From positions 1,568,001-1,632,000 of the forward strand of contig OZ244042.1 of the NCBI GenBank assembly GCA_965215015.1: a stretch of 64,000 bases of DNA, given 5' to 3'. This document shows, one piece after another, positions 18,986 through 24,821 of the stretch (position 1 is the stretch's first letter; every line of letters starts with the position of its first letter). The position numbers were made by a program, and so were the translations under genes. The notes beneath the pieces are model-generated. The model was not told the DNA's origin. It made no database searches and saw nothing but the letters and a program-made list of their open reading frames with translations. Origin of the DNA: Candidatus Poribacteria bacterium. GTDB lineage: Bacteria > Poribacteria > WGA-4E > PCPOR2b.

Positions 18986-19486
18986 TCAAAACAAAATGTG
19001 AACGAGCGGTAAGACAAATTGATCCGGTTCATCGGGGGCCCAATCATTCTGTCCGATATCTCGGATCGGCGGCCGCCGTGGAGGAGTTATACGTTGTGGC
19101 GAAGTAGGAATCAGCTCTTCCGAAGGATTTTTGTCATGCGTGTGCAGCCAATCCCACAAACCAATAAGGAAGGCTAACGATACCGCAGAGGCACCGATAA
19201 TCCTGAAATCTGTAGTGGAGAGCTCGGGTGCAAACTCATTTTGTCGAATCATTTGGATACCACGCACGCCTACATAGCTATGAATTGCTGTAAATGGTAG
19301 GGCAGTGAAGGTAATAATCTCAAAGCGACGCAATGCGCTTTCGTGGTAGACCTCTTCCTCTTGCTGACGAACGGGCGGCGTCTCCGCCTCCGAACCTTCC
19401 TGATATTGGGCCAAAACATTGGTCGTAATAATTGCGGTTAAAATCAGAACGACAAGTAATCTAATTTTCGATCTGTTTCGCTTCAT
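18986..19486 (-). CDS. Hypothetical membrane protein
   Basis: Signal peptide plus 2 hydrophobic segments; overlaps the lspA stop. Confidence 0.7.
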   Translation of the reverse strand: MKRNRSKIRLLVVLILTAIITTNVLAQYQEGSEAETPPVRQQEEEVYHESALRRFEIITFTALPFTAIHSYVGVRGIQMIRQNEFAPELSTTDFRIIGASAVSLAFLIGLWDWLHTHDKNPSEELIPTSPQRITPPRRPPIRDIGQNDWAPDEPDQFVLPLVHILF

Positions 19487-19961
19487 CGTAATCTCCTCGA
19501 TGATGAAATAGGTAAATCATCAACAGGCCAGCACCGATACAGACAGCGGTATCGGCAATATTGAAAGTGGGCCACCAGAGGCCGGGCAGTCGAAATTGGA
19601 TAAAATCTGTGACCTCCCCAAGGCGAATACGGTCAATAAAGTTACCGAGGGCACCCCCAAGCAGGAAGCTGAGTGCGACCTTCATCCATGTGCTTTCGTG
19701 GAATTGCCTGTAATAGTAGGCAATGAACCCCATTGCAACAATCGAGATGAGGACTAGCGGCACGCTGTGCCCCGTCATCAGTCCAAATGCGGCACCGTCA
19801 TTCGTGTCATGGCGGAGGTTGAATATGCCCTGAATGATTACACGTTGACCATGATATGGGATATGTTGTTGAACCAACCACTTGGTGAATTGATCCACCA
19901 ATAATACAGGCAAAGCAATACCGACTAGAGGTAAAATTAATTTTAGTAGTTTTCTCTGCAT
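19461..19961 (-). CDS. lspA: Lipoprotein signal peptidase II
   Basis: DQFTK, NDGAAFG, GALGNFIDR, VTDFI, FNIAD. Confidence 0.97.
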   Translation of the reverse strand: MQRKLLKLILPLVGIALPVLLVDQFTKWLVQQHIPYHGQRVIIQGIFNLRHDTNDGAAFGLMTGHSVPLVLISIVAMGFIAYYYRQFHESTWMKVALSFLLGGALGNFIDRIRLGEVTDFIQFRLPGLWWPTFNIADTAVCIGAGLLMIYLFHHRGDYDEAKQIEN

Positions 19962-19984
19962 TGGAAATGTCCTTGTATATTATG

Positions 19985-20450
19985 ATAACCTAAGTTGCTA
20001 GTTGATAAACCCGCTCGGCTTGGATAGACATATCTAAGCCATAAATACCCGGACTAAGCGCAATGTCCCGGGCCGATTGAGCCATGATTATCGCCCTATA
20101 ATGTCTGGTATTCTGTCGCGCAATGTGCTAGATATCTCGTGCAGTGGATTTGTCAAGCCTATGCGAGTTGCCTAATCCAATACCTGTAGGTCAAGACTCA
20201 TATCTCGACACAAGCCCGTTGATTTTAGAAAATTGACAGACAGAAGTCTGCAACCGTCTCAAATGGCTCTGAATCCCAATTTTATCGGGGAGGAGCGCGT
20301 AGATAGTAGCACAGGGCCTGCTCTTGATGAAATCGGGGTTTCCTAACCTACCAGCTACAGGTTGGAAACCTGTGCTACGATTGGATTGTAATTGTCAGGT
20401 GGTAACTTGAGTGGAGATTCCATGGATATCCAACTAGCAACTTGCGTTAT
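19985..20450. repeat. MITE-like element family B
   Basis: 20-bp TIRs ATAACCTAAGTTGCTAGTTG / CAACTAGCAACTTGCGTTAT; related ends at 5417, 13341, 26024, 32133, 32236, 62575, 62774. Confidence 0.75.
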
Positions 20451-20507
20451 GATAATAGACAGTGCTCAGTCAAAATTCGCCGCCGTTTTATTTCCATATT
20501 TCAAAAT

Positions 20508-22922
20508 TTACTCGTAACTCGTTACCTTTTGACCTATCCATTCCTCTAGCGATTGTGTCCAGTGTCCGTCCGCATCAGTCAGGTGAGAAAAGCGAACATG
20601 GGACATCCAATTTTTCAAAAAAATGCTCGACAACTCCGATTCATCGTGATGTTGGGTGTAATCCGGAGGTGAAGTAGGAGTTTCTTGCATTCGGATTAAG
20701 GCGTAGGTTTGTTCGGAAAAAAAAGGAATGATTGGCGCAAACCGTTGTATCAAGACATATAAAATCGCTGATAGTACTGTTTGGCGCGCCCTCTTTTCTA
20801 GCCCTGTTTCCAACGCATTGCAGTGGTCATCGAAGAATGGTTGAAGATTTGATTGGCAAAAGTTCCTTAGCAGATACCACACCTGATAAAAATCGCGGTC
20901 CTGATAGGCGAGGTCTACGGATTGCAACACTTTGGCGGTAGCGGACAATATCTGTGTATCCGATTTTGATATTGGCTCCAGAAGAGAGGCATGGGGGTCA
21001 AAATCCTCAAGATAACTCAATATCGTGGAGTACAGTTTTTGGATGGCGTTATATTCATGTTGACACTGTTGCAGGTGCATCTCCATTGATGACGGATTCA
21101 GATTGGGTTGCAGGCAGAGCAAGCGCAGTACATCCTTTGGATATTCCTCCATCCAGCTTTGGTTGACATCAACGGACTGGACATTTGAATAATCTCCTGT
21201 CAACTCCACATTCAACGGGGGCGCATCGGAGATAGCAATCGAAGTTAAAACAAACTGAGCAAACCATCTATGAAATTGATTCGAGTAAAAGAAGTAAACA
21301 TTAATCGGCTGAACATTATTTCCTTTGACTTCGAGATTGTTGATCGCGTTGAGCAGAACCGCAAAGCGTCCATCGAGGGTTGTAAATTCTTTCCGAAACT
21401 CTTTTCCATCACAGTTATGGCATAAGGTATTCGGAGGTAACAAATCTTCAGTATCTAACTTAAACCAGCTATCGGCTCCGCGACGACCGATTAAAGCACG
21501 AATGGCTTTGACAATTCGACCGTCGGAAAGCTCTCCCCCACATTTTTGGCACTGAAAAATAGGAATCGGAGTCCCCCAACCTCGGTGGCATGAAACAGAT
21601 GGAGGCGGAAGCTCTCGGACCGTTTGCTGTATCCAATCTCTATCTTTAGAGCTATAGTGTGTCAAACGTTCATCTGAACAAATGACACGCTTCCTCAATT
21701 GATTGTTGTCCAAGGAGAAAATCCATTGTTGAATAGGCCGAAACAAGGCAAGTGTATCACACATCCAACAGTGGGGTTGGTGCACATCCTCAGATCCTGC
21801 TGATATTAGATAGCCCCGTTTCTCTAGTTCAAAGGCAATGAACTTCCCCGCGTCGGAAACTTCAAGTCCACAAAACTGCTCGGAATCCTCTGTTAAACGG
21901 CCCGCATCATCAATAACTGATGTAATTGGAAATTGCAGGACTTGAGCGATTTGATAATCATAAGAACGGTGACCTGGGGTAAGAGGCCTTACCCCGGGCG
22001 GTGGTTGAGACATCATCTCCTCGCTCAATGCACTATCATGTTGAGAAAGATCCGGGATAACGACTACCGGTAGGGCTGTGCCTAGAAATGGATGGGCACA
22101 AATACAATCCGTCAGTACCTCAGCTGAACAGGTTTGTAATAGATTTAAGCTTGCCTGATGGTCTGGCGGAAAGCGAGTCGAGAGATCTTCGTCAGCAAGC
22201 AGGAGGATTTCACCACCTAACTCAGCAATCCAATATTTACTATCTGCCTGTAACCCAATGGCAACACTTCCAGCAAGATACCATAGATCTTGAAGCCATG
22301 CGAGCAGGTAAACGTCCTCGCCAAACTCTTCTAAGCCGATGCTGATGGGAAATTTGACGTATCCCGAATATGCCGGAGAGGGGTGAATTTTCATCTCATC
22401 CGCATCTAATACGGTATTACATTTCGGACACCAAGCCCCCAATTTTTGATCTTTATTTAAATAACCCGACTCTTGCAATGTACTAAAAGCATTGATAATC
22501 TTCGCTTCATCGCGTGAATCTAGACTTTTGCCTTTTTTCCAATCTCCAAAGATTCCAAGTGCCTGTAGTTGATTTTGCTGTTGTTCAACCTCGCGCTGGA
22601 ACTCACGTCGACACTGGCGGCGAAATCGGAGCGCATCAAAGGTGCCATCTTTATACTCACGATTCAAAGCCTTTGTTTCAACATCAGAAGTATAATAATT
22701 CCAATGCGGCACATACTTCACACCTAGTCCCTGCATCATGTTGACTTTAAGAAAAATGTCCTGATAGATTTTTCCTTTAAGCATATCCAACTTCAGGTGA
22801 TGGGTAGCTGTAGGCATTTCTCGAAGGATGTAGGGTGCCGATTCCGCCCGTTGAGTCAGTCGGGCATAGATATCAATATCAGCCCATAGTTCCAAGATTT
22901 TTTCTTCAGTCCTCATTTTCAA
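20508..22922 (-). CDS. ileS: Isoleucyl-tRNA synthetase homologue with degenerate catalytic motifs (candidate pseudo-enzyme)
   Basis: IleRS-type architecture and yggT-ileS-lspA synteny, but HIGH->KLDM, GWDCHG->HWNYYT, no KMSKS, no C-terminal Zn finger. Confidence 0.85.
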   Translation of the reverse strand: MKMRTEEKILELWADIDIYARLTQRAESAPYILREMPTATHHLKLDMLKGKIYQDIFLKVNMMQGLGVKYVPHWNYYTSDVETKALNREYKDGTFDALRFRRQCRREFQREVEQQQNQLQALGIFGDWKKGKSLDSRDEAKIINAFSTLQESGYLNKDQKLGAWCPKCNTVLDADEMKIHPSPAYSGYVKFPISIGLEEFGEDVYLLAWLQDLWYLAGSVAIGLQADSKYWIAELGGEILLLADEDLSTRFPPDHQASLNLLQTCSAEVLTDCICAHPFLGTALPVVVIPDLSQHDSALSEEMMSQPPPGVRPLTPGHRSYDYQIAQVLQFPITSVIDDAGRLTEDSEQFCGLEVSDAGKFIAFELEKRGYLISAGSEDVHQPHCWMCDTLALFRPIQQWIFSLDNNQLRKRVICSDERLTHYSSKDRDWIQQTVRELPPPSVSCHRGWGTPIPIFQCQKCGGELSDGRIVKAIRALIGRRGADSWFKLDTEDLLPPNTLCHNCDGKEFRKEFTTLDGRFAVLLNAINNLEVKGNNVQPINVYFFYSNQFHRWFAQFVLTSIAISDAPPLNVELTGDYSNVQSVDVNQSWMEEYPKDVLRLLCLQPNLNPSSMEMHLQQCQHEYNAIQKLYSTILSYLEDFDPHASLLEPISKSDTQILSATAKVLQSVDLAYQDRDFYQVWYLLRNFCQSNLQPFFDDHCNALETGLEKRARQTVLSAILYVLIQRFAPIIPFFSEQTYALIRMQETPTSPPDYTQHHDESELSSIFLKNWMSHVRFSHLTDADGHWTQSLEEWIGQKVTSYE

Positions 22923-22984
22923 TCACCGTTAGGGCGCAGCCATAATCTCAAGGATTCGAGAGCTCTGAATAGATGGACGCTTAC

Positions 22985-23281
22985 TTAAAAGGTTGCCCTA
23001 AGCATACTTTGCAGTATTCTTAAAAAGATTAATAAAATTAGTGGTGAAATGTCAATTCCCAAGCCCCCCGTCATGGGCCTAAGTGCTCGGCGAATTGGAT
23101 CTAGTGCTGGATCAACAAGTCGATTGGTCATCCAATAAAGTTGTCTTACCGCCATATTACCAGAGAGGTTCACAACCCAAGATAATATAACATTAGCAAA
23201 GACAATGATTGAGTAAATCCCAATCACTTCGGTTACGAGAGGTATCAACACTTCCATAGTCGAGATCCCTTCCAATCTCAC
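22985..23281 (-). CDS. yggT: YggT family membrane protein
   Basis: VILSWV, DPALDPIRR, GIDISPLI; start may be ATG 23257. Confidence 0.9.
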   Translation of the reverse strand: MRLEGISTMEVLIPLVTEVIGIYSIIVFANVILSWVVNLSGNMAVRQLYWMTNRLVDPALDPIRRALRPMTGGLGIDISPLILLIFLRILQSMLRATF

Positions 23282-24097
23282 TCAATTTGCAAGTTCTTCA
23301 GCACGTTGTGTCGCGGCACTTACGGCATCAGCGATAATCGCGCGTAGGCGTCCACTTTCCAACGCATATAGTCCCGCTGCTGTTGTTCCCCCCGGTGTCG
23401 TCACTCGGTTTTTGAGCACCGCCGGATGTTCGTCTGTATCCTCAAGCATTTTGCACGCTCCGAGCACAGTTTGTAGAGCCAGTTGATATGCGTCGGGACG
23501 GATCAGTCCGACCTGTACCCCCGCATCGGTAAAGGCTTCAATGAATAGGAACACAAAAGCGGGGCCGCTACCGCTTAAACCGGTAACGGCGTTCAGATGT
23601 CTCTCCTCCATAACTAGCGACTTACCCGCAGCGTTGAAAATTGCTTGCGTTATAGCGAGGTGCTCAGCTGTGGCTGCACTTCCCGCCGCTATCGCGGAGA
23701 TTGCTTCTCCTACAGATGCTGCAATGTTTGGCATCACACGGACAATTGGCGGTGGCGGAGAGGTGAAGTAAGATTCTAATTGGGCTGTCGAGACACCAGC
23801 TGCAATGGAGATAATCCACTGGGACCGAGATTGGAGGGTAGCAGCAATCTCTGGGAAGATATCTGGCACGTTATTCGGCTTGGCTGCATATAGCATAAAG
23901 TCCACATTTTCTACCAGTTGCGGGATGTTTTCTGCACTGTTGACTCTTAACTCCTCGCACAGTTGGTCAACAAGAGGGCGATAGACATCTGTTATCCAAA
24001 CCTGTTCAGGCGGCAATAAATCATGCACAACGCTTTTGACAATCGCCCCTCCCATATTGCCAACGGCGATAAAACCGACTCGAAGTGTTGTATCCAA
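23282..24097 (-). CDS. proC: Pyrroline-5-carboxylate reductase
   Basis: ISIAAG, VRVMPN, TGLSGSGPAF, VTTPGGTT; TTG start after GGAGGAG. Confidence 0.95.
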   Translation of the reverse strand: MDTTLRVGFIAVGNMGGAIVKSVVHDLLPPEQVWITDVYRPLVDQLCEELRVNSAENIPQLVENVDFMLYAAKPNNVPDIFPEIAATLQSRSQWIISIAAGVSTAQLESYFTSPPPPIVRVMPNIAASVGEAISAIAAGSAATAEHLAITQAIFNAAGKSLVMEERHLNAVTGLSGSGPAFVFLFIEAFTDAGVQVGLIRPDAYQLALQTVLGACKMLEDTDEHPAVLKNRVTTPGGTTAAGLYALESGRLRAIIADAVSAATQRAEELAN

Positions 24098-24101
24098 AGT
24101 G

Positions 24102-24821
24102 CTATGCTCCTCCCAATCTGATCGGGACCTTTTCTGCTCGCTCTCCAAAGATTGCTGTGCCAACCCTAATGAGATTTGCACCTTCCTCAATGGCAACCTC
24201 AAAATCATTGGTCATTCCCATTGACAGGTTATCCATCTCAACGTTCGGAAACTGCTGGGCGATGATCTTCTCTCGGAGTTGCCGCAGCAATACAAACATC
24301 GGACGCACCGCTTCCGGGTCTGGCAGAAAGGCCCCGATTGTCATCAGTCCTTTGATTCGGACATGGGTGTAAGGGTGTGCACTTTCAATGAAGTTTAGCG
24401 TCTGATCCGGTTCCAGACCGTATTTGCTGGGTTCAGCGGAGGTGTTGACTTGAATCAGTACCTCTGTCGCGCGATTCAACCCAGCAGAGCGTCGATCGAT
24501 TTCAGCAAGGAGGCGAGGACTATCCACGGAGTGGATGAGATCAAAAATCTGTAAGGCTTGTTTCACTTTGTTCCGTTGCAAATGGCCAACTAGATGCCAC
24601 TTCACAGGATGGTCAATCTGGGGGTATTTACCTTGTGCCTCTTGGACGCGATTTTCACCGATGTCTGTAATTCCTGCGTCAATTGCCTCTACAATTAGGC
24701 TGACAGGCTTGGTTTTAGATACAGCAACGAGCCCTATTGAAGCTGGGTCGCGTCCAGCACGTGCGGCAGCCGCAGCAATCCGATCTTGAATCCGTGCAAG
24801 ATTTTCGCGAATAGAAGCCAT
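24102..24821 (-). CDS. yggS: PLP homeostasis protein
   Basis: LVAVSKT, GENRVQE, HLVGHLQRNK, LSMGMTND, IRVGTAIFG. Confidence 0.96.
   Translation of the reverse strand: MASIRENLARIQDRIAAAAARAGRDPASIGLVAVSKTKPVSLIVEAIDAGITDIGENRVQEAQGKYPQIDHPVKWHLVGHLQRNKVKQALQIFDLIHSVDSPRLLAEIDRRSAGLNRATEVLIQVNTSAEPSKYGLEPDQTLNFIESAHPYTHVRIKGLMTIGAFLPDPEAVRPMFVLLRQLREKIIAQQFPNVEMDNLSMGMTNDFEVAIEEGANLIRVGTAIFGERAEKVPIRLGGA

Follow-up and report, generated by a model that had tools for sequence, protein, structure and literature searches.

What occupies the ileS locus of a genome when the gene found there keeps the reading frame of an isoleucyl-tRNA synthetase (IleRS) and none of its catalytic signatures? The question is raised by a window of 64,000 nucleotides (the whole stretch of DNA that was analysed; positions 1,568,001 to 1,632,000 of contig OZ244042.1, assembly GCA_965215015.1) from Candidatus Poribacteria bacterium, the genome of which is a single contig of 5.94 Mb that is 98% complete. 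A first-pass annotation, made from the DNA sequence without database searches, had noted an open frame of 804 codons between yggT and lspA. The frame exists as described, is uninterrupted, and is flanked by genes whose products match the Pfam families YGGT (PF02325) and PF01252. It is co-oriented with its neighbours and lies directly upstream of lspA in a conserved cluster, which makes it a positional orthologue of ileS; its product is referred to here as pseudo-IleRS. The evidence presented below makes it likely that pseudo-IleRS is a selected, non-catalytic descendant of the ancestral type-1 ileS (ileS1) of the yggT-ileS-lspA locus, and that a type-2 IleRS (IleRS2) charges isoleucine in this organism.

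The functional motifs of pseudo-IleRS were compared by HMMER alignment with those of the type-1 IleRS (IleRS1) of Priestia megaterium (8c9e). In the synthetic site, HMGH is replaced by KLDM and GWDTHG by HWNYYT, and in the editing site, WTTTPWT is replaced by WLQDLWY and GTGCVHTAPGHG by PPGVRPLTPGHR. Furthermore, the segments DWCISRQR, DVWFDSG, and EGSDQ have become PPSVSCHR, DGRFAVL, and FYSNQ, respectively. The KMSKS stretch of IleRS1 falls into an alignment gap, and the N-terminus of pseudo-IleRS begins approximately 18 residues later than that of IleRS1 (query residue 5 corresponds to chain residue 23). The C-terminal zinc domain of IleRS1, zf-FPG_IleRS (PF06827), was not found in pseudo-IleRS by Pfam. 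The first-pass annotation had listed the motif replacements by eye, together with the absence of KMSKS and the lack of the N-terminal peptide and the C-terminal zinc finger, and the residue-level alignment and the Pfam search reproduced all of them.

The HIGH signature is missing in all 34 orthologues that were extracted from related genomes, as is KMSKS, the place of which is taken by a gap or unrelated residues. Both signatures are required for adenylate formation by class I synthetases, and because they are missing, we infer that pseudo-IleRS does not aminoacylate. The editing site in the connective peptide 1 (CP1) domain is degraded as well: the His of the GTGxVH motif is present in some orthologues only, and the counterpart of the Asp of GHGxDD, D322, is found in 44% of the clade. 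Since the threonine-rich (T-rich) peptide, the His, and the Asp of the editing site are lost, editing by pseudo-IleRS is unlikely. Within the former HDGPP segment, which reads R-E-M-P in the crown group, every one of the 34 orthologues has E35 and P37. A shifted HIGH motif (T-H-H, residues 40–42) was considered and rejected: H41 and H42, which precede the HIGH position by two residues, are not conserved among the orthologues.

The fold of the protein is that of a class I aminoacyl-tRNA synthetase. Pfam identifies tRNA-synt_1 (PF00133; 104.2 bits, E-value 8.8e-30) and Anticodon_1 (PF08264; 36 bits), both above the gathering score. The best NCBIfam model is ileS (TIGR00392, an equivalog), to which pseudo-IleRS scores 254.7 bits against a cut-off of 621.4, and it thus falls 367 bits short of the ligase equivalog. 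The best sequence matches among solved structures are the type-1 enzymes of P. megaterium (4e-63) and Staphylococcus aureus (9e-54), and the matches to type-2 and eukaryotic IleRS structures are far weaker. The structure predicted by AlphaFold2 from 44 aligned relatives has a pLDDT of 83.8 and a pTM of 0.79. Foldseek matched this model over its whole length to IleRS1 of P. megaterium (8c9e, E-value 2e-46, TMq 0.76), followed by the enzymes of Helicobacter pylori and S. aureus; the look-alikes in the ESM Atlas were generic class I synthetase clusters only. The domain order that pseudo-IleRS shares with IleRS1 (8c9e and S. aureus 1ffy/1qu2) consists of the Rossmann domain, CP1, CP2/3 with Cys pairs, and a helical anticodon domain, and both genes occupy the same chromosomal place, upstream of lspA. 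The two proteins differ in that pseudo-IleRS lacks HIGH, KMSKS, the T-rich editing peptide, and zf-FPG_IleRS, and is shorter at the N-terminus. The IleRS-type architecture claimed in the initial annotation is therefore borne out by the Pfam domains, the AlphaFold2 model, and the Foldseek match, and the model indicates that pseudo-IleRS retains the whole IleRS1 fold but not its chemistry.

If pseudo-IleRS is inactive, isoleucine has to be charged by another enzyme, and a functional IleRS elsewhere in the genome had indeed been predicted. When the complete genome was searched with the ileS model, a single gene exceeded the cut-off of 621.4 bits. It scores 676.6 bits and encodes a protein of 1119 amino acids (aa) at approximately 3255448–3258807 of the chromosome. 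The protein is of type 2, is nearest to the MupA/MupB type-2 models, and contains GVHH in place of HIGH, WTTTPW, and AMHKS (an MHKS loop) in place of KMSKS. The other matches in this complete genome are pseudo-IleRS and frames of 890, 849, and 667 aa, which, judged from their lengths only, would be ValRS, LeuRS, and MetRS. The 1119-aa type-2 enzyme is, by its sequence, the sole candidate for a functional IleRS of the genome, and it is encoded away from the ileS locus. Variation of the type [A/G]IHH in IleRS2 has been linked to augmented mupirocin resistance in the available text of a 2026 preprint on IleRS C-terminal evolution.

Across Poribacteria, the functional-looking IleRS occurs in two forms that differ in length and motif. 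The long form has 1119–1173 aa and the motifs "PITANNPMGVHHAWG ... MHKS" (families f1, f3, and f9 in our numbering), and the short form has 1046–1093 aa, the motifs "GPPTANG.PGVHH ... KMSKS", and scores of 920–996 bits on the ileS model (f5, f8, and f10, with f2 and f4 assigned by length).

Selection on pseudo-IleRS was estimated from pairwise dN/dS according to Nei and Gojobori (NG86) rather than from codon-model likelihood. Among 20 family-level sequences (183 of 190 pairs, with dS below 1.5), the median dN/dS is 0.19, with a range of 0.15–0.31. The pooled omega of nine non-overlapping pairs is 0.24, with a bootstrap 95% confidence interval (CI) of 0.22–0.26, and the CIs of all four major domains span 0.17–0.35 and thus lie far under 1. 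In the same nine pairs, omega is 0.06–0.17 for proC, 0–0.19 for lspA, 0.08–0.32 for yggT, and 0.20–0.41 for orf166, a gene for a 166-aa protein beyond lspA; pseudo-IleRS falls inside the spans of two of these neighbours, yggT and orf166. In 91 genome pairs for which both genes were compared, dN/dS is 0.197 for pseudo-IleRS against 0.052 for IleRS2. Pseudo-IleRS is, by these values, constrained like an ordinary accessory protein, more weakly than a true synthetase and far from neutrality. The dN/dS analysis, which had been named as a check of the first-pass annotation, therefore rejects plain decay and indicates that the fold is selected. The loss of catalytic residues combined with purifying selection on the protein is what characterizes a pseudoenzyme.

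The closest species pairs have a dS of 0.30–0.68 at the IleRS2 locus against 0.04–0.27 at the pseudo-IleRS locus and its neighbours (for G009/G012, 0.43 against 0.09). This gap might reflect a past in which the two loci recombined differently.

Pseudo-IleRS is widespread in the phylum. Among 40 relatives from the same order, it is present in 19 of 19 other species of the genus (72–80% identity) and in four of five other genera of the family, and in the remaining families it was found in five of five (f4), six of six (f2), and none of five (f3) genomes. The 34 extracted orthologues are all uninterrupted frames of 734–893 aa, at amino-acid identities down to 28%, so that the search for disrupted orthologues yielded only intact genes, each without HIGH and KMSKS. 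Apparent stops inside some orthologue frames were rejected, being natural stop codons near the variable C-terminus. Phylum-wide, matches to pseudo-IleRS (E<=1e-40) occur in 153 of 176 genomes and 22 of 31 genera; motifs were inspected in 34 + 5 of the 153 genomes. The latter five are deep-branching, and each of them encodes a type-2 IleRS (four above the cut-off, with 920–996 bits, and the fifth cut by a contig end) and a second copy that lacks HIGH, KMSKS, and the T-rich peptide. The gene order proC-yggT-X-lspA-orf166 is preserved in nearly all of the 38 loci examined. In five genomes that lack the pseudo-gene, lspA directly follows yggT, and the pseudo-gene has been cleanly deleted at least twice. 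Both lineages without it carry the long IleRS form.

The positions that selection has preserved were identified by comparing 27 members of the clade with the representatives of 119 canonical-looking IleRS1 clusters. Thirty-seven positions, mostly core Trp, Gly, Pro, and Cys residues, are conserved in both sets, and the clade has not kept 65 positions at which canonical IleRS1 is conserved to 90% or more. The lost positions include the HIGH region, the Asp of GWD, the T-rich peptide, the editing His and Asp, the Trp of DVW, EGxDQ, and KMSKS, as well as R628/N629/R632 and K698/D699/Y702/R710 of the anticodon-binding domain. Residues that correspond to pocket positions (P37, W74, and W553) have not been lost. 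The four CxxC pairs (C165/168, C385/388, C458/461, and C501/504), WGTPIP, and the helix segment FAPIIPFFSE, which the first reading of the sequence had pointed out, are all present in the translation, and across the orthologues the Cys pairs show little or no variation. In both G027 and G030, the second Cys is missing from CPKC and CWMC at the same time, which fits the formation of one metal site by these two pairs. Twenty-two positions are conserved in the clade only, and 12 of them are located in CP1. Eight of these clade-only positions form an acidic loop with the consensus KFPxxxGLEEFGxxV, which is positioned just N-terminal to the former T-rich strand. In net charge and in the numbers of Lys and Arg residues, the domains of clade members are no different from those of canonical IleRS1, and these values have no bearing on RNA binding.

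Evidence on the history of the protein was obtained by searching a profile of the clade against 1.84 billion cluster representatives, with motifs tabulated for the top matches of at least 700 aa. Eight metagenomic members of the clade (P0061–P0067 and P0104; 918–949 aa) group with G041, a Poribacteria genome of another class. These deep members have neither HIGH nor KMSKS and keep WTNTPWT, GTGCVH, and the C-terminal zf-FPG_IleRS; the Asp of GHGxDD is already lost. By their motifs, they possibly represent an intermediate stage. A FastTree phylogeny was calculated from 77 of about 170 rows (16 Poribacteria-type, 16 deep metagenomic, 15 other degenerate, and 27 canonical sequences, with three IleRS2 as the outgroup). 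In this tree, a single clade of 32 rows (support 100), next to canonical IleRS1, unites every Poribacteria-type and deep member. On the most economical reading, the synthetic site would have disappeared in an early member of the phylum in which IleRS2 was already present, and the branch that led to the order of the window would subsequently have lost its editing motifs and C-terminal domain.

Approximately 15 IleRS1-like representatives from outside the Poribacteria clade (P0116, P0122, P0132–P0134, P0146, P0158, P0166, P0178, P0189, P0217, P0225, P0235, P0238, and P0246) also lack KMSKS, and most of them lack HIGH. Many retain DVWF and/or words of the E.xxQxRGW type, and two have long fused extensions (1441 and 1469 aa). 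They are placed in at least two other positions of the tree, and this placement suggests independent degenerations.

The combined observations are consistent with the following mechanism. Isoleucine would be charged by the separate type-2 IleRS encoded elsewhere on the chromosome, and the old ileS1 copy, which no longer has its C-terminal zinc domain, would have lost the editing site and the amino-acid pocket as well as ATP binding (HIGH and KMSKS). The folded, full-length protein has been kept by purifying selection across most of the phylum, and would bind something by means of the rigid IleRS scaffold with two conserved Cys4 sites. The candidate binding surfaces are the remodelled cleft of the former active site (R-E-M-P) and the new acidic GLEEFG loop of what was once the editing domain. 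Since selection has preserved the scaffold and its metal sites along with the altered cleft and the newly formed acidic loop of CP1, a non-catalytic binding or regulatory role is favoured. As to the partner, a protein, or a function as a regulatory subunit by analogy with HisZ, may tentatively be considered; tRNA or another RNA would be a doubtful choice, and a role as a small-molecule sensor appears improbable. The tRNA-binding role suggested in the first-pass annotation is, if anything, weakened: since conserved residues of the anticodon domain and the C-terminal zinc domain are gone, the recognition of the tRNAIle anticodon in the canonical manner is doubtful.

Several synthetases have given rise to proteins with new roles, among them HisZ, LeuRS-I, SLIMP, and SbzA, and by its sequence pseudo-IleRS may be classed with these synthetase-derived pseudoenzymes. 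HisZ, a paralogue of HisRS, is the regulatory subunit of HisG; it is a truncated class II protein, and its partner and ligand are known. We use it as an analogy for how a pseudo-synthetase may function, and claim no membership for pseudo-IleRS. By analogy, LeuRS-I and HisZ appear to be the nearest functional counterparts of pseudo-IleRS. In the description available in PMC9437257, HisZ has no adenylation activity and owes its retention to a role in binding or regulation, and LeuRS-I of Sulfolobaceae forms leucyl-adenylate and binds tRNALeu but does not charge it. As described there, LeuRS-I and LeuRS2 of Halobacteria resemble pseudo-IleRS in being full-length class Ia paralogues with little or no charging activity and a disrupted CP1, kept beside the housekeeping enzyme, whereas the Poribacteria protein differs from LeuRS-I in the absence of ATP motifs and the loss of anticodon-domain residues.

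SbzA, an IleRS homologue that moves Ile from Ile-tRNAIle in SB-203207 biosynthesis, and the cyclodipeptide synthases, class-I-like enzymes that use aminoacyl-tRNA, are presented in the same source (PMC9437257). SbzA, which was compared by description only, is likewise derived from IleRS and has a non-translational function; it is, however, an enzyme from a Streptomyces biosynthetic cluster, whereas the pseudo-IleRS gene is situated among housekeeping genes and its product has degraded tRNA-binding features. The co-occurrence of two IleRS types also has a precedent. Bacteria generally use either ileS1 or ileS2, and within the sampling described by Zanki et al. (bioRxiv 10.1101/2022.02.09.479832) both were found only in Bacillaceae. 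In Bacilli, ileS1 and ileS2 are reported in that preprint to be both active, with ileS1 as the housekeeping gene. The Bacillaceae pairs resemble the situation in Poribacteria in that genes of both IleRS types coexist in one genome, where ileS1 occupies a conserved locus. They differ in that the Poribacteria IleRS1 copy appears catalytically erased, which leaves the type-2 enzyme as the only candidate synthetase.

Three other explanations of the locus have to be weighed. New ATP-independent chemistry, in which pseudo-IleRS would act as an Ile-tRNA-dependent aminoacyl transferase similar to SbzA or as a CP1 trans-editing hydrolase, is an outside chance. It could draw on the use of aminoacyl-tRNA by SbzA and the cyclodipeptide synthases (PMC9437257), on the concentration of the new constraint in CP1, and on the WTNTPWT and GTGCVH motifs that P0061–P0067 and G041 retain. 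However, the lineage of the window has lost the T-rich peptide, the His and Asp of its editing site are no longer conserved, the GHGxDD Asp is missing even from the deep members, the tRNA-binding residues and domain described above are gone, and the neighbours of the gene are housekeeping genes rather than a biosynthetic cluster.

According to the second explanation, the gene is a plain relic, an ileS1 that has decayed neutrally since the takeover by IleRS2, with its frame open by chance or for the sake of expression through to lspA. The missing catalytic motifs, the constraint that is relaxed relative to IleRS2, the outright deletion in two lineages, the lost C-terminal zinc domain, and the last 50 residues, which are nearly free to change (omega 0.54), would all be expected of a relic. 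None of this accounts for 34 intact orthologues of 34 at identities down to 28%, for the omega CIs in the four major domains, or for the invariant Cys4 sites and the conserved new motifs of the clade, and the need for read-through by itself puts no constraint on amino acids. In the window, moreover, 546 nucleotides of repeats separate the stop codon from lspA, so that tight coupling is not needed. The relic explanation is largely refuted by dN/dS, and we consider it very improbable.

That pseudo-IleRS is still an IleRS, or forms another aminoacyl-adenylate in an unrecognizably divergent site, for example as a stress or antibiotic-resistant back-up, is the least credible explanation, since the complete IleRS architecture, the retained P37, W74, and W553, and the tolerance of the phylum for altered motifs (GVHH and MHKS in the main IleRS) are outweighed by the absence from every orthologue of both ATP signatures that class I adenylation is established to need, the deletion rather than substitution of the KMSKS loop, the unconserved counterparts of the GWD Asp, the DVW Trp, and EGxDQ, and the 367-bit shortfall from the equivalog cut-off.

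The reading of pseudo-IleRS as a selected, non-catalytic descendant of ileS1 is itself opposed by several points. Its dN/dS is approximately four times that of the real IleRS, and constraint is thus relaxed; across the order, pseudo-IleRS is 29% identical, against 50–60% for lspA, yggT, and proC. No match at E<=1e-40 was found in family f3 (none of 11 genomes) or genus g5 (none of four). Because these two Poribacteria lineages deleted the gene cleanly, its role would be dispensable in some backgrounds, and accessory rather than essential. The absence of catalysis was deduced from the absence of motifs, and motif-less class-I-like users of aminoacyl-tRNA exist, namely cyclodipeptide synthases and SbzA. 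The binding site at the GLEEFG loop or the REMP cleft is a proposal from conservation only. Finally, the monophyly of the deepest members is provisional, since it was obtained with FastTree only, which readily joins long branches, and such branches are present in the tree.

The gene is part of a co-oriented row that comprises genes for a YggS-like pyridoxal phosphate (PLP) protein, proC, yggT, pseudo-IleRS, lspA, the 166-aa protein, def, and fmt. The listed start of the frame is a TTG, directly preceded by an in-frame TGA. An ATG at codon 3 (22914–22916) has a Shine-Dalgarno-like word, GGTGA, approximately 6 nucleotides upstream, and the database protein P0002, which is identical to pseudo-IleRS, has 802 residues; translation therefore probably starts at this ATG and yields a product of 802 aa. 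The spacer between pseudo-IleRS and lspA is a mosaic of short repeats, in which pieces of 25–310 nucleotides match more than 100 other places of the genome at 72–100% identity. These repeats match none of the relatives' loci, in which lspA begins approximately 30–170 nucleotides past the stop codon. The interpretation of the spacer as a decayed C-terminal domain was therefore rejected. A scan of positions 19000–24000 with Rfam gave zero RNA families at E<=1, and promoter and terminator scans were no better than in shuffled sequence. A search for sequencing runs that cover the stretch listed four contig-type runs of a single study and none of RNA. The 166-aa protein is encoded next to lspA in nearly all Poribacteria loci examined, at 42–81% identity, and it seems to accompany lspA throughout the phylum as a conserved partner without a name.

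Table 1. Positions in the window of the pseudo-IleRS gene, its neighbours, and the protein segments discussed in the text, with omega by region
Feature	Position	Strand	Evidence or remark
Pseudo-IleRS (IleRS1-derived) frame, 804 codons + stop	20508..22922	-	frame scan, Pfam, NCBIfam, structure-chain alignment
yggT, upstream neighbour of pseudo-IleRS	22985..23281	-	Pfam YGGT (PF02325)
proC, upstream of yggT	23282-24208	co-oriented with row	gene-order comparison; YggS-like PLP protein further upstream
lspA (signal peptidase II), ancestral downstream partner of ileS	19461..19961	-	Pfam PF01252, gene order
orf166, 166-aa protein	18986-19486	-	no Pfam family; overlaps lspA end by 26 nt
Spacer of dispersed genomic repeats, pseudo-IleRS stop to lspA	19962..20507	.	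546 nt
Residues 34-47, REMPTATHHLKLDM, former HDGPPYANGxxHxGH site	22782..22823	-	HIGH replaced by KLDM
Residues 161-395, CP1/editing-domain homologue	21738..22442	-	T-rich peptide replaced by WLQDLWY; GTGxVH His not conserved; dN/dS 0.20
CPKC (C165/C168), half of first structural Cys4 site	22419..22430	-	orthologue alignment
Residues 190-204, KFPISIGLEEFGEDV, clade-specific acidic loop	22311..22355	-	K190 P192 G196 L197 E198 E199 G201 V204; not conserved in canonical IleRS1
CWMC (C385/C388), partner half-site of CPKC	21759..21770	-	orthologue alignment
CQKC (C458/C461), invariant	21540..21551	-	orthologue alignment
CHNC (C501/C504), invariant	21411..21422	-	orthologue alignment
Residues 570-590, place of KMSKS loop	21153..21215	-	no KMSKS-like word; gap relative to IleRS1
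Residues 655-773, Pfam Anticodon_1 helical domain	20604..20960	-	fold kept; R628/N629/R632 just upstream and K698/D699/Y702 inside not conserved; dN/dS 0.29
First Rossmann half			omega 0.20
CP1			omega 0.20
Second Rossmann half with CP2/3			omega 0.22
Anticodon-binding domain			omega 0.29
Last 50 residues (C-tail)			omega 0.54

A literature search on motif-less IleRS1 and Poribacteria synthetases found no description of such a protein; it did not cover supplements, which are a possible home of IleRS surveys. For IleRS, Table 1 of the review of duplicated synthetases (PMC9437257) lists IleRS2 and SbzA only, and that table contains no full-length, catalytically erased IleRS. A term search of the 2026 preprint on IleRS C-terminal evolution gave no mention of Poribacteria. 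In databases, members of the motif-less family (P0009, P0035, P0049, P0051, P0054, and others) are labelled "isoleucyl-tRNA synthetase" by JGI and "class I tRNA ligase family protein" by NCBI. The JGI label is likely a functional misannotation, and pseudo-IleRS may consequently be miscounted as an IleRS in metabolic reconstructions of sponge symbionts, marker-gene sets, and antibiotic-target surveys.

For the biology of Poribacteria, the locus would be a case in which a displaced housekeeping gene stays in its ancestral place, has lost all four ligand sites, and is still conserved phylum-wide. The deep members with editing motifs and a zinc domain and the crown members without them would provide a dated, stepwise natural series from an essential enzyme to a pseudoenzyme. 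A broader scenario, which we put forward as a speculation with the odds against it, is that after the ancestor of the phylum gained IleRS2, the displaced IleRS1 was converted stepwise, by loss of the synthetic site, the editing site, and the C-terminal tRNA domain, to a non-translational protein with the former editing domain as its working surface, and that other uncultured lineages took the same route independently. If this were true, retired class Ia synthetases would be a recurrent source of binding or regulatory proteins, or of aminoacyl-tRNA-dependent enzymes.

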